From Mobula hypostoma (Eukaryota), in NCBI RefSeq assembly GCF_963921235.1, contig NC_086108.1:68574001-68638000 (forward strand): a stretch of 64,000 nt of DNA, given 5' to 3'. The position numbers were made by a program, and so were the translations under genes. The notes below the pieces were generated by a model. The model was not told where the DNA came from. It saw only the letters and a list, made by a program, of their open reading frames with translations, and made no database searches. Shown here in pieces: positions 1,900-56,885 of this stretch. Position 1 is the stretch's first letter. Each line of letters starts with the position of its first letter.

Positions 1900-2368
1900 C
1901 AGTCAATCGGTGGGTGCTGTCCCGAATCCAGGGTTGGTGGCTGTACACCTCCATCTTCTTTGATCTTGCGACTGCACTGAGTACAGCCTCTCCTCCAGTT
2001 TGTTCTCGCTGGCCACCTTGGCACCGCCTACCGCTGCCCCCACCGACCTCGAGCCCGAGGCCGTCTTGGCCTCCAGCCGCGGCTGCTTCTTCAAGCTCGT
2101 CCCTTCCTTAGGCAGCGGCCTTGGGCAGATCCAGGCACACGGTGCAGCGCCCAAGTCATCATCTCTTCTAACCAGGTGCATAGCATACAACTCGAGGTGA
2201 GGCTTTAGCCTCTTCCACGGAAGATGGCTTTTGGCTCACAAGGAGCTCATCCACCCTTTGTCAGGTCTTGTTTTTTTTAGCCCTGCTGGGTGTCCTCACA
2301 CCCTCCTCACCAGACTAAGTCTGGTGGGGGAACCGGCCCAAGTCGCCGACCACTCGACCACGGCCCCC
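1900..2368 (-). mobile_element. Short non-autonomous retroelement (RTE-like bipartite/SINE-like) inserted in CR1 and carrying a host exon fragment
   Basis: Flanked by an 11-bp near-perfect direct repeat: GAAGATTTGAT (1889-1899) and GAAGATCTGAT (2369-2379). Minus-strand head starts GGGGGCCGTGGTCGAGTGG and has several hairpins. The 3' part encodes SQDQRRWRCTATN..., resembling RTE ORF C-termini, and ends in a GATT/GACT-type tail. Confidence 0.6.
1974..2148 (-). pseudogene. ZFTRAF1: Captured fragment of a ZFTRAF1/CYHR1-like (cysteine/histidine-rich protein 1) coding exon, segments in permuted order
   Basis: Minus strand gives [11 protein letters not shown] (2146-2114) and ...KKQPRLEA...[11 protein letters not shown] (to ~1975). 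Together these match the conserved [21 protein letters not shown] motif I recognise from CYHR1/ZFTRAF1. The segment is GC- and CpG-rich, unlike its flanks. Confidence 0.8.
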
Positions 2369-2758
2369 GAAGATCTGATGGAGGTAAATAAAATGATGAT
2401 GGGTATTGACAGAGTGAATGCAAGCAGGCTTTTTCCACTGAGGCTAGGGAAGAGAAAAAACAGAGGACATGGGTTAAGGGTGAAGGGGGAAAAGTTTAAA
2501 GGGAACATTAGCGGGGGCTTCTTCACACAGAGAGTGGTGCGAGTGTGGCCTCATCACAACAGTAGGAGGCCATGGACTGACATGTCGGAATAGGAAGGGG
2601 AAGCAGTTTGAAAAGCTCAAACGAATAAATAGAGGAGTAGCTCAAGCAGAGCAGCCTGTGGAAAGCGACCAGTGAAGGAGTGGAGCTTTGAGGCTTTGAC
2701 TTGAGAGGCTTCGATGAGAAGAGGCGGAGGACAAGCTTGTTCCCAGTTAGTCTTTACA

Positions 2759-3644
2759 ATGCCTCCTGAGATGGTGATGTGCCTCTCATGTCAGATGTGG
2801 CAGTCTTGGGGGAACTCCCCTCTCCCGCAGAATCACATCTGCCAGAAGTGCATGCGGCTGGGCGACATGGAAGACCGTGTAAGGAATCTGGAGCAGCAGC
2901 TGGATGACGTTCCACTCATAAGGGAGAATGAGGCAGTCATAGATGAGAGCTACAGGGAGGTAGTCACACCTAGGCTGTCGGAAGCAGGTCGTTGGGTGAC
3001 AGTCAGAGGTGTGAAAGCGAAGGTGAGCAGACAGGTAGTGCAGAGCACCCCTGTAGCCATTCCCTTGAATAATAAGTTTACCGTCCTGGATACTGTTGTC
3101 GGGGACGACCAACCAGGTGTGAGCCATGGAGGCAGGGAGAAGAGGAGCGCTGTCGTCATTGGAGAGGGGAGCAGACAGGAGATTTTGTGGACGTGAGAAA
3201 GACACCCACATGGTTTGTTGCCTCCCGGGTGCTAGGGTCCAGGATGTCTCTGACCGGGTGCACGACATCCTGGTACGAGAGGGAAAGCAACCAGAAGTCG
3301 TGGTACATGTTGGGACCAATGACATAGGCAGGAAGAGGGATGAGGTCCTGAAGTGTGAGTATCAGGAACTAGGCAGAAGGCTGAAGAACAGGACCTCAAG
3401 GGTGGCGTTCTCAGGATTGCTGTCAGTGCTACGTGACAGTGATGGTAAGAATTGGAGGAGATGGCAGTTGAATGCATGGCTGAGGAGTTGGTGCAGGGGG
3501 CAGGGTTTTTGATTTTTGGATCATTGGGATCTCTTCTGGGGAAGGTGGGACCTGTACAGATTGGATGGGTTACACCTGAACTCGAGGGAGAGCAATATCC
3601 TTGCAGGTAGGTTTGCTAGCATGGTTCGGGAGGGTTTAAACTAA
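2759..3644 (+). pseudogene. CR1 ORF1 (zinc-finger/coiled-coil + SGNH esterase), frameshifted
   Basis: CLSC...ICQKC, VCCLPGARVQDV, HVGTND and DGLHLN motifs are spread over ORFs 2714..3196, 3126..3512 and the downstream frame. Confidence 0.88.
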
Positions 3645-3769
3645 TTTGCAAGGGGGATAGGACCCAGAGCGATAGAGTAGTGAAAGAAGTGCATGGAGTA
3701 AAGCCAGATCTAACATATTGAGAGGCTTTGAGGAAAGAGAAACAGAATAAACAGTGTAAAGACAGTAAG

Positions 3770-6562
3770 GTAGAAGGGCTAAAGTGTGTGTACTTCAATG
3801 CAAGAAGCATCAGGAACAAAGGTGATGAACCGAGAGCTTGGATACATCCATGAAATTATAATGTAGTGGCCATTACAGAGACTTGGCTGGCACCAGGGCA
3901 GGAATGGATTCTCAATATTCCTGGATTTCAGTGCTTTAAAAGGGATAGAGAGGGAGGGGGAGGAGGGGTGGCATTACTGGTCAGGGATACCATTACAGCT
4001 ACAGAAAGGGTGGGTAATGTATCAGGATCCTCTTTTGAGTCAGTATGGGTGGAAGTCAGGAACAGGAACGGAGCAGTTACTCTATTGGGGGTATTCTATA
4101 GGCCCCCTGGTAGCAGCAGAGATACAGAGGAGCAGATTGGGAGGCAGATTTTGGAAAGGTGCAAAAATAACAGGGCTGTTATCATGGGTGACTTTAACTT
4201 CCCTAATATTGATTGGCACCTGATTAGTTCCAAGAGTTTAGATGGGGCAGAGTTTGTTAAGTGTGCCCAGGACGGATTCCTGTCACAGTATGTTGACAGG
4301 CCGACAAGGAGGAATGCCATACTAGATCTAGTATTTGGTAACAAACCGGGTCAGGTCACAGATCTCTCAGTGGGTGAGCATCTGGGGGACAGTGACCACT
4401 GCTCCCTGGCCTTTAGCATTATCATGGAAAAGGATAGAATCAGAGAGGACAGGAAAATTTTTAATTGGGGAAGGGCAAATTATGAGGCTATAAGGCTAGA
4501 ACTTGTGGGTGTGAATTGGGATGATGTTTTTGCAGGGAAATGTACTATGGACATGTGGTTGATGTTTAGGGATCTCTTGCAGGATGTTAGGGATAAATTT
4601 GTCCCAGTGAGGAAGATAAAGAATGGTAGGGTGAAGGAACCATGGGTGAAAAGTGAGGTGGAAAATCTAGTCAGGCGGAAGAAGGCAGCATACATGAGGT
4701 TTAGGAAGCAAGGATCAGATGGGTCTATTGAGGAATATAGGGAAGCAAGAAAGGAGCTTAAGAAGGGGCTGAGAAGAGCAAGAAAGGGGCATGAGAAGGC
4801 CTTGGTGAGCAGGGTAAAGGAAAACCCCAAGGCATTCTTCAATTATGTGAAGAAGAAAAGGATGACAGGAGTGAAGGTAGGACTGATTAGAGATAAAGGT
4901 GGGAAGATGTGCCTGGAGGCTGTGGAAGTGAGCGAGGTCCTCAATGAATACTTCTCTTCGGTATTCACCAATGAGAGGGAACTTGATGATGGTGAGGACA
5001 ATATGAGTGAAGTTGATGTTCTGGAGCATGTTGATATTAAGGGAGAGGAGGTGTTGGAGTTGTTAAAATACATTAGGACGGATAAGTCCCTGGGTTCTGA
5101 CAGAATATTCCCCAGGCTGTCCACGAGGCAAGGGAGGAGATTGCTGAGCCTCTGGCTAGGATCTTTATCTCCTCATTGTCCACGGGAATGGTACTGGAGG
5201 ATTGGAGGGAGGCAAATTTTGTCTCATTTTGTCCCCTTGTTCAAAAAAGGTAGTAGGGATAGTCCGGGTAATTATAGAGCAGGAGCCTTACGTCTGTGGT
5301 GGGAAAGCTGTTGGAAAAGATTCTTAGAGATAGGATCTATGGGCATTTAGAGAAACAGGGTCTGATCAGGGACAGTCAGCATGGCTTTGTGAAGGGCACA
5401 TCGTACCTAACAAGCCTGATAGAGTTCTTTGAGGAGGTGACCAGGCATATAGATGAGGGTAGTGCAGTGGATGTGATCTACATCAATTTTAGTAAGGCAT
5501 TTGAAAAGGTTCCACACGGTAGGCTTATTCAGAAAGTCAGAAGGCATGGGATCCAGGGAAGTTTGGCCAGGTGGCTTCAGAATTGGCTTGCCTGCAGAAG
5601 GCAGAGGGTCGTGGTGGACGGAGTACATTCGGATTGGAGGGTTGTGACTAGTTGTGTCCCACAAGGATCGGTTCTGGGACCTCTATTTTTATTAATGACC
5701 TGGAAGTGCAGGTAGAAGGGTGGGTTGGCAAGTTTGCAGACGACACAAAGGTTGGTGGTGTTGTGGATTGTGTAGAGGATTGTCAAAGATTGCAGAGAGA
5801 CATTGATAGGATGCAGAAGTGGGCTGAGAAGTGGCAGATGGAGTTCAACCCGGAGAAGTGTGAGGTGGTACACATTGGAAGGACAAACTCCAAGGCAGAG
5901 TACAAAGTAAATGGCAGGATACTTGGTAGTGTGGAGGAGCAGAGGGATCTGGGGGTACATGTCCACAGATCCCTGAAAGTTGCCTCACAGGTAGATAGAG
6001 TAGTTAAGAAAACATGAGGTGTTAGCTTTCATAAGTCGAGGGATAGAGTTTAAGAGTCACGAGGTAATGATGCAGCTCTATAAAACTCTGGTTAGGCCAC
6101 ATTTTGGAGTACTGTATCCAGTTCTGGTCGCCTCACTATAGGAAGGATGTGGAAGCACTGGAAAGGGTACAGAGGAGATTTAGCAGGATGCTGCCTAGTT
6201 TAGAGAGCATGCATTATGATCAGAGATTAAGGGAGCTAGGGCTTTACTCTTTGGAGAGAAAGAGGATGAGAGGAGACATGATAGAAGTAAACAAGATATT
6301 AAGAGGAATAGGTAGTGTGGATAGCCATCGCCTCTTTCTCAGGGCACCACTGCTCAATATAAGGAGACATGGCTTTAAGGTAAGGGGTGGGAAGTTCAAG
6401 GGGGATATTAGAGGAAGGTTTTTTACTCAGAGAGTGGTTGGTGCGTGGAATGCACTGCCTGAGTCAGTGGTGGATGCAGGTACACTAGTGAAATTTAAGA
6501 GACTACTAGACAGGCATATGGAGGAATTTAAGGTGGGGAGTTATATGGGAGGCAGGGTTTGA
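3770..6562 (+). pseudogene. CR1 ORF2 (APE endonuclease + RT), multiple frameshifts/stops
   Basis: AITETW, FYRPP, MGDFNFP, SDH, QHGFVKG, PQGSVLG and KFADDTK across ORFs 3866..5350, 5296..5715, 5652..6017 and 6104..6562. Confidence 0.92.
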
Positions 6563-6900
6563 TGGTCGGCACAACATTGTGGGCCGAAGGGCCTGTACTG
6601 TGCCGTACTATTCTATGTTCTATATTCTATAAGTGAAATTAAAATGGGTAGCCACTGGGAGATCCCACTTTTTTCTGGTGAGTAGAGCAGTCTCCCAATC
6701 TGCATTGGGTCTCACCGATATACAGGAGGCCACACTGGGAGCAGTAGATAACAATGCATGATGGCCCCAAACAAACTCACAGGTGAAATACAACCTCACC
6801 TGGAAGGACTATTTGGAGCCCTGAATGGTAGTGAGAGAGTAGGTGTAGGGGCAGGTGTAGCACTTGTTCCACTTGCGAGGCTAAGTGCCAGGAGGAAGCA

Positions 6901-15700: not shown

Positions 15701-17843
15701 TTTCTTTCTTTTTAAATCTTTTTATTAAATAAGTATACAAAAAGGTAAGCCATATAGGCACTAATACACTGTTAGAATATAATAAAATTACAGAAGATAT
15801 TAATACAAAAAAAAACTACAAACAATGTAATTTAAACATAACGTACCAAGGTAACATAATAGTATACTAATTTTTATATATATATCAATAGAGAAAGGAA
15901 AAAAAAACCCCAAAAAAAACCCACCGTGCAACTAACTAAAAGCAAAGCAAAGCAATGGGCTAACTTGAAACCAAACAGAGTTAAAAAAACTTAAAATCAC
16001 GTCCTCAATCCCGACCTCCATTAAAAACAGTAAAAAAAACAACAAGGGTATATATTACATTAAATGAAAATATTGAATAAAAGATCTCCAGGTCTGTTCA
16101 AATTTAAATGAGGAGTCATAAAGATTGCTTCTAATTTTCTCCAAATTCAAGCATAATATCATCTGAGAAAACCAAAAAAAGGTAGATGGAGCATTGAGCT
16201 CTTTCCAATGTTGTAAGATACATCTTTTCGCCATTAAAGTAAGAAATACAATCATTCTACGGGCTGAAGGGGAGAGATTACTAGAAATTTTAGGTAGTCC
16301 AAAGATAGCAGTAATAGGGTGAGGAGAGATATCTATATTCAATACCTTGGAGATAATATTAAAAATGTCTCTCCAAAAAGTTTCCAGAGTAGGGCAAGAC
16401 CAAAACATATGAGTTAAAGAGGCTAGCTGCCCCGGACATCTATCACAAAAAGGATTAATATGAGAATAAAAGCGCGCTAATTTATCTTTGGACATATGTG
16501 CTCTATGAACAACTTTAAATTGAATCAGGGAATGTTTAGCACAGATAGAGGAAGTATTGACTAATTGTAAAATCTGCCCCCAGTCATCGACAGAAATGAT
16601 AAACCTTAATTCCTGTTCCTAATCTACCCTAATCTTATCAAATGGAGCTTTCCTAAGTTTCATAATAATATTATAAATCATAGCCGATGCACCTTTCTGA
16701 CATGGATTAAGGTTAATTATAGTATCTAAAATGTATGTAGGAGGAAGCATTGGAAAGGAAGAAAGTATAGTACTTAGGAAATTTCTAACTTGTAGATATC
16801 TAAAAAAATGTATTCTTGATAAGTTATATTTATTAGATAATTGTTCAAAAGACATAAGGGAACCATCTAAAAATAAATCCAAAAACCATGAAATACCCGT
16901 AGTCTTCCAAATTTGAAAAGCATGATCCGTAAAAGAGGGAGGAAAAAATATGTTACCTAAAATAGGAATCGCTAACCCAAATTGATTAAGATAAAAAAAC
17001 TTTCTGAATTGAAACCAAATACGTAAGGTGTATTTAACTATCGGGTTAGACACCTGTTTAAGGCGTTTCAAATCAAAAGGAAGAGAGGAACCCAAAATAG
17101 AGCCAAGTGTATAACCCTGAACAGATTGTAATTCCAATGCTACCCATTTAGAAATGGATAGTATATCCTGGTCAAGTAACCAGAATTTCATATGTCGAAT
17201 ACTAATTGCCCAATAATAAAATCTAAAATTAGGTAATGCTAAGCCTCCATCTCTCTTAGCTTTCTGTAAATGTATTTTACCCAGTCCCGGGTTTTTATTT
17301 TGCCAAATAAATGAAGAAATTTTAGAGTCGACTTTGTCAAAAAAAGATTTTGGAACAAAATTGGTAATGCTTGAAATATATATAAAAATTTTGGCAAAAA
17401 AAACATCTTAACTGCATTAATACGACCAATCAAAGTTAAATATAAAGGAAACCATTTAGATGAAAGTTGAATAATATGGTCTATTAATGGTAAAAAGTTA
17501 ATCTTAAATAAATCTTTGTATTTACAAGTAATTTTAATCCCAAGATATGAAAAATAATTATTAATCAATTTAAATGGAAAGTTATGATATAAGGGAAGTT
17601 GTTTATTAATCGGGAAAGGTTCACTCTTACTAAGATTTAATTTATAACCAGAAAAGAGACTAAATTGTGCTAATAACTCTAAAACAGCCGGGATGGATTT
17701 TTGGGGGTTAGAAATATATAAAAGTAAGTCATCAGCATAGAGTGATATTTTATGGGACTTTAAGCCCCGAGTTATCCCAGTAATATTTGGAGATTCTCGA
17801 ATGGCAATTGCAAGAGGTTCTAATGCAATATCAAATAATAAAG
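15701..17843 (-). mobile_element. L1-clade LINE, 5'-truncated (RT core to 3'UTR)
   Basis: 15-bp TSD GAAATCACTACTTTC (15686-15700 / 17844-17858). LYADD at ~17728-17742, FSYLGI, and C-terminal CDRC...HMFWSC zinc knuckle. AATAAAAAG followed by a (GAAA)n tail. Confidence 0.93.
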
Positions 17844-18259
17844 GAAATCACTACTTTCAATAATTTGAAATTGAAACAATATTGTGCAGGGTCATAAAGG
17901 AGTTTCTACAACTGATTTAAGCATCTTTTAAAATTTATTAATGTGACTTGGGTATTAGGAGCAAGCATAAGCTCCATGTATGAATTGTAATTTACCAGGC
18001 CATACTAGAATAATGTCCAGGAGTACCTGTCCAGAGAAGAACTGCTTTATTGTCTGATGAGCTGTACGTGGGCCTAGAGTCATCAGCGAATGTCCCATTT
18101 CTGATCTTCAGATGAAAGGAAGGGTACCGATGAAGCAGCTAAAGATGGCTGGCCAATGAAACTGACCTCGAGAACTCCTGCTCCGTTGAAGGAGGAGGAA
18201 TGAGGTAGGAAAAGAAAGGAGGCGGGAAGGCATCAGAAGGAAGGAGTATGGGGAAGAAG

Positions 18260-29080: not shown

Positions 29081-30771
29081 GAGGAACACTACAAACAATG
29101 AAAACAACAATGGCCTGTGTTTGTCCCAGCAGCTGCCTTGCTTGCTTTATGGCCACAGCAGCCCTTTGAAGCCGTTTGGCTCCCAATTACCCCGAGATCT
29201 CTCTGCGAGAGCAATCTGCAAAACAAATAGACCAAGAGCGGCCAGGCCTTGGGCAATGAAAACCAAGGCCCCACCTATTCTACATGCTCACTGTTCACTG
29301 GGCCTCCTCACTGATTGTCAAAGACATTTAGAAGCAGTCGAATAAAATACATGAACACTGCAGCCACCTGATGGCTTTCTATGGAAAGAACACCTAATCA
29401 CTGTGAGATTCATCCGAATAATGAGTTTGCAGTTGTTGTAAGGGCAAAAGAATTTCAACATAAATATTACATTTTGATAAGAAAGAAAACAAGCATGTTT
29501 TACTTGATTAATAACCTCAATTTGGTCTTAAAAGGCATCTCACAGAATAAATCCACAAAACAATAAAAGTTTTAAAATATTTAAATCAAGCTCAAAGGTT
29601 TATTTCTACAAAGACAGTGATGAAAAAGAGGGAATTCATGCTAAATCCTTGTTAAAACATCAGGCTTGTACTATTGTAATAAACTTGTAATATTGATTCC
29701 AATTTGGTTGTGTTATATAAAACATGGAAATAGGCCCACTTGAGGTGATTTTCTAGGGCCGTTCCTACTCGCACCACAGAAATTGGATCCTACCCTACTA
29801 TCTCCAAGCTCTGTTTCAGACAAGGAGGTGCCTTGTCCTTGGCAATAAACATGGAAAGTCTTTGCAGGTTCAAAAGCTACCCCCTCCCAGGTGAGCAGCC
29901 ACTGTCTACACCAGCAGCAGGCATCAGAACGACTCTGCAGACTCTGCAGACTGTCATTCCCTGTAAGACAGCAGACCAGACAACATCCCAGGCAAGTACT
30001 CAGGAAATGTGCACACCAGCTCATTGACGTCTTCATGGACATCTTCAACATATCACTCATCCAGGCTGCTGACCCCCCCATGCTTCAAATCAGCCACCAT
30101 CATCCCCGTACCAAAGAACTCTACACCTTCAGAACTAAACGACTCCTGCCCGGTGGCACTGATATCAATCATCATGAAGTACCTTGAATGGCTGGTAATG
30201 GCACATATCAAAACACTCCATTCCTGCCACACTGGACAGTCACCAATATGCTTACCGACACAACCGCTCTACGACAGATGTCATTGTATCTGTCATGCAC
30301 CAGGTCCTGACACACCTGGAAAACAAGGACACATGTCAGAATGCAGGTTCTGGATTTCAGTTCGGCATTCATTACCATTGTCCCATTGACCTTGGTGAAC
30401 AAACTCCTACTCCTCAGCATAGTTCCCTCTAAGCTGTGTGCGTGTGTGCCTGCACACACGTTTTTCAACCAGCGCACAAAGGAAATTACTGTGCACACAA
30501 AAGGTTAATTACCTAACATAATGTAGTAGTTAATAATTATACTTATTGAATTAGCTAACTGTTTCTGTTAACTAGTTAGTCGGTTTTTCAAATACCACAA
30601 TGCACGTCACTAATTTACGTCACCTCACCTTTCCTGTTCCGGTTTGTACAGCTGCATCACAGCGGCAGCCATCTTTGGCAGACAGTGTTCATATCATAAA
30701 GGTTACAAAGGTCTGTTTCAAATCCTGTAGATGGATTACTAAGCTTTTATTGGAAAAAATATCGATTCATT

Positions 30772-31647
30772 ATGTCGAATTCAAAAGAAGCCAAGGGCGT
30801 GAAGTGCAAAAGAACTGCAAATTTGTTTAAAGTTGAATGGCTTAACAAAATAGTAGAAACTGTTACACCGAAAGCTCATGAGGTCATGAACGTTCAGCTA
30901 CGAGAAATATTTATGTATCATTCAGAAACTGGAGTTACCTGTTTGTATTGTCGAGATGTGAAAGTTGCTGGAGAATTTGCTAGTGGAAAGAAGTGGGATG
31001 ATATTTGCAAGCTTGACTTTTTGAAGCATCATTTGGCAAGTAAATCACATTTGGGCGGTATACAAAAGCTCAGGCAACAGAACCAGTCATTACCCGTTAC
31101 AGGAGTGCTACGCATGTTACGGTTGAGTGCAGATGAGCGAGAGCGAAAACGATCAAACCCAGAGGAGATCAAAGTTGAGGTACAAGAATGGTCAGCTTTT
31201 GATTTCTTCACAATTGCAGATTGTGACTTCACATTTGGCGATGAACAAGTTAATGCCTTATGTCTTAAATATCATGATTTTCTAGCTGAAAATATTGTAA
31301 TAGTTAGACAGTTTAATGATTTCAAATTTTCTGTGCAAGAAAAAATTAAATCCAAACCGATTTCAAACTTTGCTCAAATGGTGGCATTTGTACTTCAAAA
31401 TGAACAGTTTTGCAACCTTGCACAGTTGATGGACATTGGGGGAACCTTTCTTGCGTCTAGTGCAGACTGTGAATGAGGTTTTAGCATGATGAGTCAACTC
31501 AAAAACAAGCTGAGAAACCATTTAGGTGAATGTCATTTGGATCTGTTAATGAGAATCAAAAGCTATCAATGGAATGGAAGTTCTATTAGTCGAGATAGAG
31601 TTTACAAAGAATGGATAAATGCCAAAGACAGGAGAGAGAGAAAATAA
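30772..31647 (+). pseudogene. Deleted hAT transposase ORF: N-terminal zinc finger fused in frame to the hATC dimerisation domain; one premature TGA at 31474-31476
   Basis: FKVEWL...CLYC...LKHHLASKSH (ZNF862/TTF-type finger), then LASSADCE*GFSMMSQLKNKLRNHL...LDLLMRIK...EW..AKDRR. The DDE core is absent. Confidence 0.85.
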
Positions 31648-35432: not shown

Positions 35433-37264
35433 ATTCCCTTACTCCTGGTTAGATTCCAAATTACAGATTGAGATATTCTGCACTTATGTAAACCTTTTAC
35501 ACTATTTGTTCACACTAAACGTTAAGTTGCTTGAAAATTCCCTGACACTACTTATCTATTGCTTTGCACTTTTCCAAGATTTGTTTACATATTGTCCTTT
35601 TCATCTCCTTTGGCTGCCCAATGCTCTGAACTGTGTAAATGCCATACATTTGTTCCTCAGTTCACCCCAGTCAGTCTCATTTGTTGATCATCCCAGCCTT
35701 TCATCCTTTTGCCCCATTTTGTACAACGTTTTATTTCTATTAATTTCTGTTTTTACCCACCAACAATCTTGACTGGAAACCCTGTGGCAGAAGCCACAAA
35801 AAAAACATAATTTAAAAACAATCAAACCAGTATAACAAAATCAAGTAAAAAGTCCAACATACATTTCTGCTGAGTTCATCTAGCGTCTTGAGGGTATTGC
35901 CAGTTTTGTATTTAATATTTCAGTAATATTTGAGTAATATTGTAAATACATTGTTTGATTAAGCATTCTTTCTTTGTTTTCAGAATTCATTACAGGTTAA
36001 GTGTAAGAAGTACATGAATGGTATACATCATTATGCCACCATGCCTCACTGAAAAAAATGAGAAAAAACAACTAAATAGATTAGTATCCAGGTTCCCATG
36101 TTTTTCTTTTAATCAGTTTCTAGAGTTACACAATGTAACAGTAACAATGAGGAAATTCTAAAGTGAACCAGAGTTGAATGCCTACCTGTTGAAGTGTCAC
36201 ATATTTTTCTTTCAAAGTGGAGAGAATGACATTCAAGTTTAAAAATAGGCAGAAAATGGACAAAATTAACAAGCAATGAGTACAGCCATGGGTTCATAAC
36301 AGTAAGTACCAGGTGATAACGTAAATAAATAAGTAAATAAGCAGACAAACAAACAGATAGATAAATAACTAAAGCAGAAGTGGTTGGCTACTTTGGAAAG
36401 ATAGATGCATTCGATTGCACAACAGATAACTGGATTATACATACTGAACGAATTGAGCAGTGTTTTGAAGAAAGTGAAATAGCCAATGAGAAATGAATGC
36501 CAGTGTTGCTGAGAGCAATGGGTAGGAAAGCATACAGTTTGCTTAGAAGCTTAGCTTCTCCAACCAAACTAGCCAAAATGAGCTTTGTTGATATCGTGAA
36601 GGAAATGCAGGAACACTTATAACCAAAACAATTGTTGATTGCAGAACACATTAGGTTTCATAAGCAGAATCAAGAGTGAGTCCATTATATGCGGCTGAAT
36701 TGAAGAAATTGTCCAAGTATTGTCAGTTCAGTGATGGTCTTAATGATTCACTGAGAGGTCAATGTGGAATCTTACATAAAGACGGCTCCTAATGGAAGCA
36801 CAACTCACATTTAAAAGAGCAATCGAAATCACTGTATCAAAGGAAAATGCAGCTGCAGACACAATTGAGTTGCAGTCACAAATGAAGGTGAGTGTGTGAC
36901 ATCTAAACAAAAACATGCCTGGTCAAACAAATTGTGTTACCATTGTGGCAGGGGCTCACATACACCCGACCCGTGCAGGTTTGAAGAAACACCTTGCAGA
37001 AAATGCAGCAAAGTAGGACACATACAAAGAGAATTCTAGGCAGACAAAAATAAATAGACTACACAGGGAAGAGAAGATGATAAAAACTCAAGTTGCAGAT
37101 TCAAAAAGAACACCAATCTGCATGTTATTGATGAAAAAACTAATAACGATTAGAGGAACACAGGTCTGTGTAGTCTTGAGATTTAAAATGTGAAAATTAA
37201 CAAGCAAGATGGCTTACACCAGAAGTAACTGACAAATTAATTAAAACAGAATTGAATACTGCCT

Positions 37265-38495
37265 ACAACAGTCCTCTGTCAAAATGCCATCCCCTTCTCG
37301 CAATTCCTCCATCTCCGCCGCATCTGCTCTCAGGATGAGGCTTTTCATTCCAGGACGAAGGAGATGTCCTCCTTTTTTAAAGAAAGGGGCTTCCCTTCCT
37401 CCACCATCAACTCTGCTCTCAAACGCATCTCCCCATTTCACGCACACCTGCTCTCACTCCATCCTCCCGCCACCCCACTAGGAATAGGGTTCCCCTGGTC
37501 CTCCCCTACCACCCCACCAGCCTCCGGGTCCAACATATTATTCTCCATAACTTCCGCCACCTCTAACGGGATCCCACCACTAAGCACATCTTTCCCTCCC
37601 CCCCCCCTACATTCCGCAGGGATCGCTCCCTACGCAACTCCCTTGTCCATTCGTCCCCCCCATCCCTCCCCACCGATCTCCCTCCTGGCACTTATCCTTG
37701 TAAGCAGAACAAGTGCTACACATGCCCTTACACTTCCTCCCTTACCACCATTCGGGGCCCCAGACAGTCCTTCGAGGTGAGGCAACACTTCACCTGTGAG
37801 TTGGCTGGAATGATATACTGCGTTCAGTGCTCCCGATGTGGCCTTCTATATATTGGCGAGACCCGACGCAGACTGGGAGACTGCTTTGCTGAATACCTAC
37901 ACTCTGTCCACCAGAGAAAGCAGGATCTCCCAGTGGCCACACGTTTTAATTCCACATCCCATTGCCATTCTGACATGTCTATCCATGGCCTCCTCTACTG
38001 TAAAGATGAAGGCACACTCAGGTTGGAGGAACAACACCTTATATTCCGTCTGGGTAGCCTCCAACCTGATGGCAGGAACATTGACTTCTCTAACTTCTGC
38101 TAATGCCCCACCTTCCCCTCGTACCCCATCCGTTATTTATTTTTATACACACATTCTTTCTCTTACTCTCCTTTTTCTCCCTCTGTCCCTCTAACTATAC
38201 CCCTTGCCCATCCTCTGGGTTCCCCTCCCCTTGTCTTTCTCCCTGGGCCTCCTGTCCCATGATCCTCTCATATCCCCTTTGCCAATCACCTGTCCAGCTC
38301 TTGGCTCCATCCCTCCCCCTCTTGTCTTCTCCTATCATTTTGGATCTCCCCCTCCCCCTCCCACTTTCAAATCTCTTACTAACTCTTTCTTCAGTTAGTC
38401 CTGACGAAGGGTCTCGGCCTGAAGTGTCGACTGTACCTCTTCCTAGAGATGCTGCCTGGCCTGCTGCGTTCACCAGCAACTTTGATGTGTGTTGC
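37265..38495 (+). mobile_element. Penelope-like element, 5'-truncated (RT thumb, Cys linker, GIY-YIG, pLTR)
   Basis: GMIYCVQCSRCGLLYIGETRRRLGDCFAE; perfect 13-bp TSD TTGAATACTGCCT (37252-37264 / 38496-38508). Confidence 0.93.
38397..38432 (+). ncRNA. Minimal hammerhead ribozyme motif in the Penelope pLTR (GAAA mutated)
   Basis: AGTC-CTGACGA-AGGGTCTCGGCCT-GAAG-TGTC-GACT. Confidence 0.65.
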
Positions 38496-40748: not shown

Positions 40749-43700
40749 AGAAACATAGAAACACAGAAAACCTACAGCACAATAGAGGCCCTTCGACCTA
40801 CAGAGTTGTGCCGAACATATCGCTACCTTAGAAATTACTAGGCTTACCTACAACCCTCTATTTTACTAAGCTCCATGTACCTACCTAGTAGTCTCTTAAA
40901 AGACCCTATCGTATCTGCCTCCACCACCATTGCCGGCAGCCCATTCCATGCACTCACCACTCTCTGAGTAAAAAACTTACCCCTGACATCTCCTCTGTAC
41001 CTACTCCCCAGCACCTTAAACCTGTGTCCTCTTGTGGCAACTATTTCAGCCCTGGGAAAAAGCCTCTGACTATCCACACGATCAATGCTTCTCATCATCT
41101 TGTACACCTCTATCAGGTCACCTCTCATCCTCTGTCGCTCCAAGGAGAAAAGGCCAAGTTCACACAACCTATTCTCATAAGGCATGCTCCCCAATCCAGG
41201 CAACATCCTTGTAAATCTCCTCTGCACCCTTTCTATGGTTTCCACATCCTTCCTATAGTGAGGCGACCAGAACTGAGCACAGTACTCCAAATGGGGTCTG
41301 ACCAGGGTCCTATATAGCTGCAACATTACCTCTCGGCTCCTAAGTTCAATTCCACGATTAATGAAGGCCAATACACCATATGCCTTCTTAACCATAGAGT
41401 CAACCTGCGCAGCTGTTTTGAGCGTTCTATGGACTCGGACCTCAAGATCCCTCTGATCCTCCACACTACCAAAAGTCTTACGATTAATACTATATTCTGC
41501 CATCATATTTGACCTACCAAAATGAACCACTTCACTCTTATCTGGGTTGAACTCCATCTGCCACTTCTCAGCCCACTTTTGCATCCTATCGATGTTCCGC
41601 TGTAACTTCTGACAGCCTCCACACTATCCACAACACCTCCAACCTTTGTATCATCAGCAAACTTTCTAACTCATCCAGGTCATTTATAAAAATCATGAAG
41701 AGTAAGGGTCCCAGAACAAATCCCTAAGGCACACCACTGGTCACCGACCTCCATGCAGAATATGACCCATCTACATCCACTCTTTGCCTTCTGTGGGCAA
41801 GCCAGTTCTGGATCCAAGCAATGTCCCCTTGGATCCCATGCTTCCTTATTTTCTCAATAAGCCTTGCATGGTGTACCTTATCAAATGCCTTGCTGAAATC
41901 CAGATACACTACATCTTCTGCTCTTTCTTCATCAATGTGTTTAGTCACATCTTCAAAAAATTCAATCAGGCTCGTAAGGCAAGAACTGCCCTTGACAAAG
42001 CCATGCTGACTACTCCTAATCATATTATGCCTCTCCAATTGTTCATAAGTCCTACCTCTCAGGATCTTCTCCATCAACTTACCAACCACTGAGGTAAGAC
42101 TCACTGGTCTACAATTTCCTGGGCTATATCTACTCCCTTTCTTGAATAAAGGAACAACATCCACAACCATCCAATCCTCCAGAACCTCTCCCATCCCCAT
42201 TGATGATGCAAAGATCATCGCCAGAGGCTCTGGAATCTCCTTCCTCACCTCCCACAGTAGCCTGGGGTACATCTCATCCAGTCCCGGTGACTTACCCAAC
42301 TTGATGCTTTCCAAAAGCTCCAGCACATCCTCTTTCTTAATATCTACATGGTCAAGCTTTTCAGTCTGCTGCAAGTCATCACTACAATCACCAAGATCCT
42401 TTTCCATAGTGAATACTGAAGTAAAGTATTCACTAAGTACTGCTATTTCCTTCAGTTCCATACATACTTTCCCACTGTCACACTTGATAGGTCCTATTCT
42501 TTCATGTCTTATCCTCTTGCTCCTCACACACTTGTAGAATGCCTTGGGGTTTTCCTTAATCCTACCCGCCAAGGCCTTCTCATGGCCCCTTCTGGCTCTC
42601 CTAATTTCCTTCTTAAGCTCCTTCTTATTAGCCTTATAATCTTCTAGATCTCTAACATTACCTAGCTCTCTGAACCTTTTGTAATCTTTTTTTTTCTTCT
42701 TGACTAGATTTATTACAGCCTTTGTACATCACAGTTCCTGTGCCCTCCCATAACTTCCCTGTCTCATTGGAACGTACCTGTGCAGAACTCCACATAAATA
42801 TCCTCTGAATATTTGCGTCATTTCTTCCATACTTTTCCCTGAGAACATCTGTTTCCAATTTAAGCCTCCAATTTCCTGCCTGATAGACTCATAATTCCCC
42901 TTACTCCAATTAAATGCTTTTCTAACTTGTCTGTTCCTATCTCTTTCCAATGCTATTGTAAAGGAAACAGAATTATGATCATTATCTCCAAAATGCTCTC
43001 CCATTGAGAGATCTGACACCTGATCAGGTTCATTTCCCAATACCAAATCAAGTACAGCCTCTCCTCTTGTAGGCTTATCTACATATTGTGTCAAGAAACT
43101 TTTCTGAGCACACGTAACAAACTCCACCCTATCTAAACCTCTAGCTCTAGGGAGATGCCAATCGATATTTGGGAAATTAAAATCTCCCATCACGACAACT
43201 CTGTTATTATTACACCTTTCCAGGATCTGTTTCCCTATCTGTTCCTCGATATCTCTGTTACTATTGGGTGGCCTATAAAAAACACCCAGTAAAGTTATTG
43301 ACCCCTTCCTGTTCCTAACCTCCACCCACAGAGACTCCGTAGACAATCCCTCCATGGCGCCCATCTTTTCTGCAGCCGTGACACTATCTCTGATCAACAG
43401 TGCCACGCCCCCACCTCTTTTGCCTCCCTCCCTGTCCTTTCTGAAATATCTAAAACCCGACACTTGAAGTAACCATTCCTTTCATTTTAAATCTTTTTAT
43501 TAATTTTCCAAAATTATAAATGGAATAACAATATTGATACAGAGAGATTGGAATAATCTTATTGTTGATAAACGTGTACAAAAAAGACTTCAAATAATAC
43601 AGGTGTAATAGACTTCCAAACTCTTAATATAGTTAATCATAGAGAAAATAGAAATAAAAAGAAAAAAAAGCAAAGAAAAACCCAAAAAGGCAAATGGAAC

Positions 43701-54269: not shown

Positions 54270-56885
54270 GTTCATTTTTACCATGGATATCCAATCCCTC
54301 TTCACCTCATCCCACACCAGGATGATCTAAGCAGCCCTTCACATTTTCCTTTAAAGGAGGCTCAATCAGTCTCCTCTACCATCACCTCATCCACCTACCT
54401 GAAATCATTCTTACATTGAACTATTTCTCTTTAAATCCACTCAGTTTCTCCAACTCAATAGCGAAGGTGCGGACTCGCATAGGCCCAACGTACGGTTGTC
54501 TCTTTGTGGGATAAGTAGAAGGGACTGTGTTTCACTCCCGCCTCTTCTAGTGCATCACTCACAACACGCTGGAGGAACTCAGCAGGTCGGGCAGCATCCG
54601 TGGAAATGATCAGTCAACGTTTTGGGCCGGAACCCTTCATTAGGACTGAAGAGGGAAGGGGCAGAGGCCCTATAAAGAAGGTGGGGAGAGGGTGGGAAGG
54701 AGAAGGCTGGTAGGTGCCAGGTGAAAAACCAGTAAGGGGAAAGATAAAAGGGTGGGGGAAGGGAAGCAGGAAGGTGATAGGCAGGAAAGGTGAAGAAGGA
54801 ATAGGGGAAAACACAATGAGTAGTAGAAGGAGGCGGAACCATGAGGCAGCTAGGGGAGGGGGCAGAGTGAAACTGGGATAGGGGAAGGGAGGGGGGAGGG
54901 AATTACCAGAAGTTGGAGAATTCAATGTTCATACCAAGGCGCTGGAGACTACTTAGACGGCATATGAGGTGTTGCTCCTCCAACCTGAGCCTCATCATGG
55001 CAGTAGAGGAGGCCATGTATGGACATATCCGAATGGGAATGTGAAGCAGAGTTGAAGTGGGTGGCAACCGGGAGATCCTGTCTATTGTGACGGATGGAGC
55101 GGAGGTGCTCAACGAAGCGGTCCCCCAATCTGCGTCGGGTTTCACCGATGTAGAGGAGGCCACACCGGGAGCACCGGATGCAATAGATGACCCCAACAGA
55201 CTCACAAGTGAAGTGTTGCCTCACCTGGAAGGACTGTTTGGGGCCCTGACTGGTGGCAAGAGAGGAGGTGTAGGGATAGGTGTAGCACTTACGCTTACAG
55301 GGATAAGTGCCGGGTGGGAGATCCATGGGGATGGACGTGTGGACTAGGGAGTCGCAGAGGGAACGATCCCTGCAGAAAGCGGAAAGGGGTGGAGAAGGAA
55401 AGATGTGCTTAGTGGTGGGGTCCTGTTGAAGGTGGCGGAAGTTGCGGAGGATAATGTGTTGGATCCGGAGGCTAGTGGGGTGGTAGGTGAGGACAAGGGG
55501 AACTCTGTCCCTGTTGTGGCGGCAGGAGGATGGGGTGAGAGCCAAAGTGCCGGAAATGGAGGAGATGCGGGTGAGGGCATCATTGATGACGGCAGAAGGG
55601 AAACGATGATCCGTAAAGAAAGACAACATTTGAGATGTCCTGGAACGGAAAGCCTGATCCCGGGAGAAAATGCGGCGGAGACGGAAAAACTGGGAATAGG
55701 GAATGGCATTTTTGCATGTGGCAGGGTGGGAAGAGGTATAGTTAAGGTAGTTATGAGAGTCAGTGGGCTTGTAGAAGATGTCAGTGGATAGTCTGTCTCC
55801 AGAGATGGAAACCAAGAGATCGAGAAAGGGGAGATAAGTGTCCAAGATAGACCAAGTGAATTTGAGGGCTGGGTGGAAGTTGGAAGTAAAGTTGATGAAA
55901 TTGACGAGCTCAGCGTGGGTGCAGGAAGCAGCACCAATGTAGTCGTCAATGTAGCAAAGGAAAAGTTGGGGAGCAGTACCAGTATAGGTTTGGAGCACAG
56001 ACTGTTCCACATAACCAATGAAGAGGCAGGCGTAGCTGGGGCTCATGCAAGTACCCATAAGTGGTCTCCTCCACATCGGTGAGACCAAAGGTAGACAGGA
56101 AACCAATTCACAGAGCACATGCATTCTATCTGCAGTGGTCATCCAGAGCTCCCCAACACATGCAATTTCAACTCCTCTTCCCATTCTGATCTGTCCATCC
56201 TCATCCTTCTCCACCTCCAGGACAGGGCCCAATACAAACAAGAAAAACAACACCTTTATATTTGGCTGGGATAGTTTACTACCCAAAGGTGTAAATATTG
56301 AATATTCCAATTTACTCTTGCATCCTGTGTTCTGTCCCAATCCAGCCCCAGTCCTCCCATCTTTGTTCCCTATCACATACTCTACTCTTCAGCTGCCCCC
56401 CTTCCATTGTAGTTCCATCCAACTACTATCTACAAATGTCAGCCACCATATCCCCTCCCTCCATCCAGTTCCATCTGACCTTTCCTGGTGGTACCCATTA
56501 ACACTTTCTTTATTATCACATTCCAGCACAGCTAGGCTTTGAGTGACCCTCCTCCATCTTCACCCCCACCCCCACAGCTCCCCAGGATGGAACCAACCTG
56601 GGCCCATCTGCCTTTTCTTTCTTTCCCTGCTTCTACATATCACCCACCTGCCAGTGTCTCTCAACTCTACCCCTCCCCTCTTCCACCTGACTCTATTTGA
56701 CCATCATCCCTCTCCCTTCCTCCATCCACCCACCACCTATTAATCCCTGTCTCATGCCTCTTCCTCTCCACTTTATCCAGCTATTGTCCTCCTCCAGGGT
56801 CTTGACCGAAACACCAGCAATTCCTCTCCCCATAGATATTGTTCAATCTGCTGCATCCCTCCAAAGTTTGATTTAGGCTGTGCTC
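54270..56885 (+). mobile_element. Old Penelope-like remnant (RT 54270-54530; GIY-YIG + pLTR 56059-56885) split by a younger antisense copy
   Basis: FTMDIQSLFTS..., GTRIGP..CLFVG..E; after the insertion, GLLHIGETK and a pyrimidine-rich pLTR. Confidence 0.68.
54561..56058 (-). mobile_element. Younger Penelope-like element, 5'-truncated (RT core, Cys linker, GIY-YIG endonuclease, pLTR with hammerhead)
   Basis: MGTCMSPSYACLF, YIDD, FLDL, KPTDSHNYL, SSHP and GVIYCIRCSRCGLLYIGETRRRLGDRFVEH lie in one open frame; hammerhead-like motif at 54611-54648. Confidence 0.93.

Follow-up and report, generated by a model that had tools for sequence, protein, structure and literature searches.

A circularly permuted ZFTRAF1 exon fragment inside a multi-copy, probably RTE-mobilised short element

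Results

A permuted exon piece carried by a repeat family

The window, a 64,000-nucleotide stretch of the Mobula hypostoma genome, contains at 1900-2368 on the minus strand an interspersed repeat element of 469 bp, in the middle of which lies a piece of the first coding exon of ZFTRAF1 (CYHR1) with its downstream part (piece B) placed before its upstream part (piece A). This locus is one ordinary, decayed copy of an unusual multi-copy, non-coding 469-bp family, and we are highly confident that both the family and its permuted exon are real. The earlier note had taken the exon piece for a circle integrated at this very locus, a claim that does not hold: the site holds a retrotransposed copy, marked by its 11-bp target-site duplication and its RTE insertion signature, and the permuted piece is shared by the family. 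A one-off integration at 1900-2368 was rejected on the same ground, the exon piece being a module of a multi-copy element.

Ends and copies of the element

The element is bracketed on the minus strand by a target-site duplication of 11 bp, with one copy at 1889-1899 on its 3' side and the other at 2369-2379 on its 5' side, where the first base on the element's strand is A. The two copies agree at 10 of 11 bases, and such a flanking repeat was found around 16 of 20000 random spans of 469 bp. The insertion interrupts the reverse-transcriptase (RT) frame of a decayed host LINE on the plus strand (194-2540, with RT-like frames at 194-895 and 739-1734), which we take to be CR1-like. Organisms C-G, which had small shares of the sequence words, are not part of the survey of copies. 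Copies were surveyed by aligning contigs of four runs (X1, X5, X16 and X18, the last two possibly of RNA) from two related organisms to positions 1780-2480, and the statements that follow refer to the 15 of 222 joints, 40 of 129 substitution rows and 32 of 33632 pieces that were listed. Contigs of the uninterrupted host LINE carry joints that skip 480 bases, that is 469 + 11 (runs X16 and X18); the flanks of the host LINE reach a depth near 1e6, with other LINE copies showing joints across the insert. Contigs from other loci with long unrelated flanks depart from the stretch at 1899 (records 11 and 21) and terminate on the 5' side at 2367-2370 (records 8, 16, 24 and 28-32), and both ends of the element are therefore fixed.

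The listed pieces from the two related organisms are ~86-95% identical to this copy. Majority letters at individual sites were carried in run X1 by 62 contigs at 1973, 76 at 2015, 70 at 2047 and 19 at 2116, and in run X5 by 49, 67, 52 and 14 contigs at the same four positions, the support per listed majority site ranging from 14 to 94 contigs across these two runs. Inside the element this copy departs from the X1 majority at no fewer than 24 sites (at least 24, counted among the 40 of 129 substitution rows listed). The junction between the 5' part and piece B and that between B and A are both bridged by X1 record 5 (2075-2311, 12 differences), and the junction between A and the 3' part by X1 records 1-3; at the B/A junction a single record passes the 31-letter bridging rule, with two more overhanging by ~18 letters. 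The exon piece reaches ~270-4900 times the depth of a single contig, a rough hint at a copy number of hundreds to thousands that gives the order of magnitude only, since depth is no copy number. No Pfam family reached its cutoff in the 10 of 19 listed frames of the element that were scanned, and with 469 bp and this Pfam result the element has no reverse-transcriptase coding capacity. One minus-strand frame of 110 codons (1903-2235) runs without interruption from the 5' part across piece A and on to the 3' tail.

At a distance of 160 bp from the insertion, an 82-bp segment of the host LINE (1658-1739) runs in the opposite sense to its flanks when aligned to the copy at 41112-41458. A second, long LINE with ORF1-like, endonuclease and RT frames occupies 2541-6632 and is presumably CR1-like as well; it begins where the host LINE is cut off near 2540, and we therefore read the two as nested insertions. 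Long frames of other retroelement types lie at 16058-17847 (minus), 54952-56388 (minus) and 37256-38100 (plus), which on their motifs we take to be L1/Tx1-like and Penelope-like, and a frame of 258 codons at 30700-31473 (plus) resembles, as we presume, the N-terminus of a zinc-finger DNA transposase.

Geometry of the exon piece

Read along the minus strand, piece B (2148 to ~2113; feature 2113-2148) precedes piece A (~2121 to 1971; feature 1971-2121), which ends in ...KLEERLYSV and corresponds to residues ~60-113 of the sawfish protein. Compared with the exon of the ZFTRAF1 locus L002, window positions 1971-2001 align to L002 834-804 and window positions 2118-2148 to L002 865-835 at the front of piece B, each with 28 of 31 bases identical and an E value of 5e-7. 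The outermost bases of the piece, 1971 and 2148, thus match the neighbouring L002 bases 834 and 835, and since its outer ends are neighbours in the gene, 1971-2148 constitutes a gap-free circular permutation of 178 bp. With L002 as the donor reference, the swapped order, same direction and donor-adjacent ends by which eccDNA-mediated duplications are recognised are all present. The piece has a GC content of 0.65-0.70 and derives entirely from ZFTRAF1 exon 1, which bears out the earlier proposal of a GC-rich, first-exon, single-gene origin; it lies in the sense strand of the element, the orientation that an RNA-level capture requires.

The earlier note had put the unit at ~178 bp with a span of 1974-2148 and three bases lost. 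The length stands, and the span has to be extended to 1971-2148, with the bases present. At 1973 all 62 differing X1 contigs, the whole depth at that position, carry the letter of the gene; one of the three supposedly missing bases was therefore substituted privately in this copy, and because the family majority at 1973 is the gene's letter, the three bases were not lost. Across piece A the majority letters of the family change nine codons, six of them towards the sawfish residue, none away from it and three neither way. The founder therefore held a near-native exon piece, which has since decayed copy by copy.

No additional copy of A or B was found beside the exon piece in the element, and in this copy the outer ends show no sign of a duplicated crossover repeat. 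Within the 5' part, 187 bp are bracketed by two identical 9-bp sequences in direct orientation (2149-2157 and 2336-2344), one of which abuts piece B; this repeat may be due to chance or be the trace of a switch back to the 5' end.

The source gene

The native order was sought by scanning metagenome contigs with a degenerate motif built from piece B only. The scan returned four loci, of which three are ZFTRAF1/CYHR1-like and have an A-like peptide directly upstream of B; the remaining one, L003, was dropped as a chance motif match. Two proposals of the earlier note are thereby upheld, namely that the element holds a ZFTRAF1 exon fragment with B before A, and that the two gene matches are adjacent in the gene and swapped here (at L002 834/835). 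In a separate protein search, a profile made from piece A and the L002 exon gave 188 proteins, the best 120 of which were listed, many of them named ZFTRAF1 or CYHR1. The A motif was found in 120 of 122 proteins and was directly followed by the B motif in 118 of those 120, and in none did B come before A (0 of 122), a count that is biased because the search profile itself held L002 in native order. Within this set, the possibility raised earlier that the native gene already has the permuted order finds no example.

Piece A shares 31 of 52 residues with sawfish ZFTRAF1 (P0069), and its variable upstream part scores 99 against that protein and at most 41 against all other proteins fetched, from which we conclude that the donor was a cartilaginous-fish gene. 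On these sequence comparisons the donor would most likely be ZFTRAF1 of the host lineage itself. The sawfish ZFTRAF1 protein contains no tandem duplication of the segment. With piece A alone as the query, none of 65 candidate proteins scored at E 10 or better, and phages gave no match. A beta-helix protein, the sole phmmer match among 1.84 billion representatives, is unrelated and was rejected as chance.

The internal junction

Where B meets A there is a zone on the minus strand, 2109-2121, that both pieces fit. In the frame of A, codons from 2121 to 2103 lie at 0-1 nt each from the sawfish protein, compared with 2-3 nt upstream of 2121, and in the frame of B the fit to the native protein holds to a point between 2113 and 2109. 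The last bases of B, read in the frame of A, encode in exact register the pair of residues found just ahead of A in the sawfish sequence, and the RP dipeptide so matched occurs once in the 127-residue exon-1 peptide. The native gene therefore probably carries an imperfect direct repeat at the two ends of the 178-nt segment, of which the element has kept one copy; its length, ~5-9 nt, is deduced from the amino acids of a relative, the sawfish, and not from host DNA. A near-repeat at the junction had been pointed out before and taken as junction microhomology. That the junction lies in microhomology appears right, the likely homology being the overlap at 2121-2113 as judged from the protein, and the 10-mers originally named are not the recombined repeat, both of their copies remaining across the junction zone.

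The position of the junction relative to splice sites bears on an origin from circular RNA, and no coincidence was found. In L002 the exon extends a few codons beyond B, up to a GT that follows the YQ codons, and the same border is seen in L001; against this border piece B stops 4-12 nt short of the exon-1 splice donor. The start of piece A falls within the first coding exon, near residue 60 of 127, and with codons deduced from the sawfish protein the junction matches no GT/AG pair. With B short of the donor and A starting in mid-exon, the piece does not derive from a back-spliced circular RNA.

Putatively RTE-like flanks and the target site

Judged by sequence features, the element would consist of a putative RTE 5' end, the permuted exon and a putative RTE 3' end. 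The 3' part (1900-1970, minus strand, 71 bp) is likely the 3' end of an RTE LINE: it has a LINE-ORF-like end with a stop at 1903-1905 and a very short tail of 4-base units, of which about two imperfect ones stand before the target-site duplication, and it has no poly(A), whereas an RTE-mobilised short retroposon would be expected to carry a microsatellite-like tail in place of poly(A). We take its peptide to be like RTE C-termini; protein and atlas searches with it gave no match, blanks that carry little weight, and no autonomous RTE partner for the flanks was found in the window. The 5' part (2149-2368, minus strand, 220 bp) is likely the 5' UTR of an RTE LINE, and its first 109 nt (2260-2368) are predicted to fold into three hairpins with z = -4.1, none of 200 shuffles being as stable. 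This modelled fold could possibly serve as a promoter, a ribozyme or a translation element. ARAGORN found no tRNA gene in the element, although it may overlook a degenerate head, and no Rfam family reached its gathering score, the one sub-threshold match being a snoRNA at E 0.61. The tRNA-, 5S- or 7SL-derived head of a classical SINE was thus not found with either program.

About one helical turn upstream of the duplication lies a T-rich stretch (2386-2393, minus strand), where seven of the eight bases from P-14 to P-7 are T, against a background of 406 of 127972 window positions and one of eight bases in the opposite orientation; the test covers one copy, with an 8-base frame chosen after looking. 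RTE-clade LINEs and their short dependants make target-site duplications of 7-15 bp, mostly 10-12, and insert with a T stretch ~10 nt upstream of a duplication whose first base is A or T, as described in the available part of PMC6007223. The insertion site of 1900-2368, with its 11-bp duplication, its first base A and its upstream T stretch, bears this published RTE-LINE signature as far as that excerpt describes it. Mobilisation of the element by an RTE-type LINE is likely, and is supported by this target-site signature. In the excerpts of PMC5786205 and PMC7245038, RTE is one of four clades known for two-ended non-autonomous derivatives, and the former describes bipartite derivatives of this kind as typical of RTE.

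Discussion

A probable single capture and possible routes to it

The permutation likely arose once, in the founder of the family, which makes it an old single capture by a jumping element, and likely not a fresh insertion of a DNA circle at this spot. For the founder event we favour, at a little under an even chance, a route in which the RTE reverse transcriptase took a looped or circular ZFTRAF1 RNA as its template and copied exactly one turn of it. The enzyme would have started on the 3' end of the RTE RNA and, after ~70 nt, moved to the ZFTRAF1 RNA at the end of A. It would have copied A back to the imperfect 5-9-nt repeat, where the cDNA could have re-annealed to the second copy of the repeat 178 nt downstream, or the enzyme could have read through a junction already closed there. 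Copying of B would have continued to the place where the enzyme had entered, marked either by a cut in the template or by the RNA:cDNA hybrid that the enzyme itself had made; from there it would have returned to the RTE 5' region, the coding interior being replaced in the process. Since both LINE ends are kept, such a product would be transcribed and copied in trans, with the exon piece most likely a passenger.

Copying round a looped RNA is preferred because the sense-strand piece sits between two putative LINE ends and because non-LTR reverse transcriptases jump between templates in vitro (PMC8857657, in excerpt). According to the same excerpt, such jumps may seldom happen in vivo, and L1 chimeras are products of prior RNA ligation. 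Further points count against the reverse-transcriptase route: three switches are needed in one reaction, a DNA mechanism would give the same-strand orientation half of the time anyway, and the size, GC content and first-exon origin of the piece fit microDNA equally well, according to the portion of PMC8194206 available. That portion gives microDNA as 100-400 bp long and derived from GC-rich exons or CpG islands. The principal alternative is a 178-bp microDNA circle that was excised from the CpG-rich first exon of ZFTRAF1 at a short direct repeat, was opened by a single cut and served as filler in a broken germ-line RTE copy, possibly one already shortened, which became the founder; we regard this as a real possibility that nevertheless falls well short of even. 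A circle opened by one cut should leave a permutation free of gaps and overlaps (PMC7188851, in excerpt), length, 65-70% GC, exon origin and the probable end repeat all match microDNA in the description of PMC8194206 cited above, neither junction uses a splice site, and the available text of PMC9132208 offers a precedent for retroelement-assisted integration of circles. Set against this, a rare circle must land inside a retroelement, at or together with an internal deletion; the outer ends lack a visible duplicated crossover repeat in this copy; the sense orientation goes unexplained, although it had a one-in-two chance; and the published cases, within the excerpt of PMC7188851, are segmental duplications of more than 1 kb. 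The retroelement context and the same-strand orientation tip the balance slightly from a free DNA circle towards template switching by reverse transcriptase, which the earlier note had itself named as the alternative.

The other explanations are all improbable to differing degrees. A tandem duplication of the 178-nt segment that arose in the gene, in a retrocopy or in a cDNA could, once trimmed or captured in part, mimic a circle, and it is the main false positive for circle-mediated duplication in the part of PMC7188851 at hand; the imperfect repeat at 2121-2109 could have seeded one. The captured length, however, equals the unit length to within ~1 base, a rare outcome of two independent breakpoints, A and B have no further copies beside the piece and the sawfish protein is unduplicated, so that we hold this origin unlikely. 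Quite unlikely, too, is the ligation of ZFTRAF1 message fragments, into a circle or to the ends of RTE RNA, before a reverse transcription that would then need no template jumping. One endonucleolytic cut would give exactly adjacent ends, and RNA ligation explains L1 chimeras in mobility assays (PMC8857657, excerpted text), but three ligations in the right order would be required and the B/A junction apparently lies in overlapping homology, which ligation does not need. Circular-RNA-derived pseudogenes do show reversed order without poly(A) (PMC4897178), and a retrocopy of a back-spliced ZFTRAF1 circular RNA would share these traits; the distance of B from the conserved donor (4-12 nt in L002 and L001), the start of A in the middle of the first coding exon and the lack of a GT/AG pair that fits the junction, with codons inferred from the sawfish protein, make it very unlikely. 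Least credible of all, to the point of being nearly negligible, is an assembly chimera or a chance resemblance. It is true that no listed contig, in a set that contains no long reads, spans the whole element with both flanks, but the junctions recur in colinear contigs from independent runs of two organisms, the target-site duplication is intact and both gene matches have E 5e-7; of the chimera that the earlier note had allowed for there is thus no sign.

Copying by the RTE reverse transcriptase, if it was responsible, would have left an in-vivo record of one round of looped-mRNA copying by an RTE enzyme. Involvement of a DNA circle would show that microDNA is able to reach the germ line and undergo amplification. 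In that case a germ-line microDNA from the first exon of a gene would have been captured by an RTE retroelement and have provided the permanent body of a SINE-like family numbering hundreds to thousands of copies, a history we consider possible and somewhat doubtful; were it true, the family would preserve a dated trace of the reintegration of a small circle and reveal a new origin for SINE 'bodies'. Under any route, an element body with a named source gene and a base-exact rotation by one turn narrows the ways in which it can have been captured, and with so many copies the junctions of the founder can be read precisely. The same copies will confuse ZFTRAF1 read mapping and annotation in these genomes. 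The locus at 1900-2368 is in itself one more copy of the family.

Comparison with known systems

Among RTE-related short elements, Bov-A, RTE-N2_Lch, WALLSI3 and the hagfish SINE2-10_EBu (PMC5786205 and PMC7245038, both in excerpt) come closest in kind. Like the bipartite RTE derivatives and RTE-mobilised SINEs described in those excerpts, the present element is short, non-coding and multi-copy, with fixed ends, an 11-bp target-site duplication with the RTE signature, a structured 5' part and a LINE-like 3' part. It differs from the bipartite derivatives, as they are portrayed there, in that its putative LINE ends are separated by a circularly permuted host exon piece, and from the RTE-mobilised SINEs of those excerpts in that no tRNA, 5S or 7SL head was found and the RTE kinship of its flanks is putative. 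With eccDNA-mediated duplications, as defined in the accessible part of PMC7188851 and exemplified by the cattle, tilapia and SVA/lcr16a cases cited in that of PMC9132208, it shares the swapped order, the same direction and the donor-adjacent cut ends; unlike the duplications of these excerpts, which exceed 1 kb, the piece is 178 bp long and lies inside a retroposon that has multiplied it.

The cartilaginous-fish SINEs CmiSINEs and SacSINE1, with tRNA heads, CORE or Deu bodies and L2 tails (PMC5499810, in excerpt), are likewise short retroposons of the same animal group. Compared by description and not by sequence, they differ from the present family in that no host exon is described in them in that excerpt. 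Circular-RNA-derived pseudogenes (PMC4897178) resemble the element as non-colinear, retro-type copies of host-gene sequence that have no poly(A) and occur in many copies. They differ in that the junction here lies within one exon and off splice sites, and in that the piece has spread within a mobile unit with LINE-like ends. SVA_F1 is a non-autonomous retroposon that carries a host exon, MAST2 exon 1, in colinear form at its 5' end, joined by splicing; as in SVA_F1, a GC-rich first-exon piece has become fixed in a spreading family, and in contrast to SVA_F1 the exon piece is internal, rotated and unspliced. In the literature we found no retroposon with a rotated host exon, a search that covered neither Repbase nor Dfam, so that the family may already be catalogued there. 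The parts of this element each have precedents, and their combination appears to be new.
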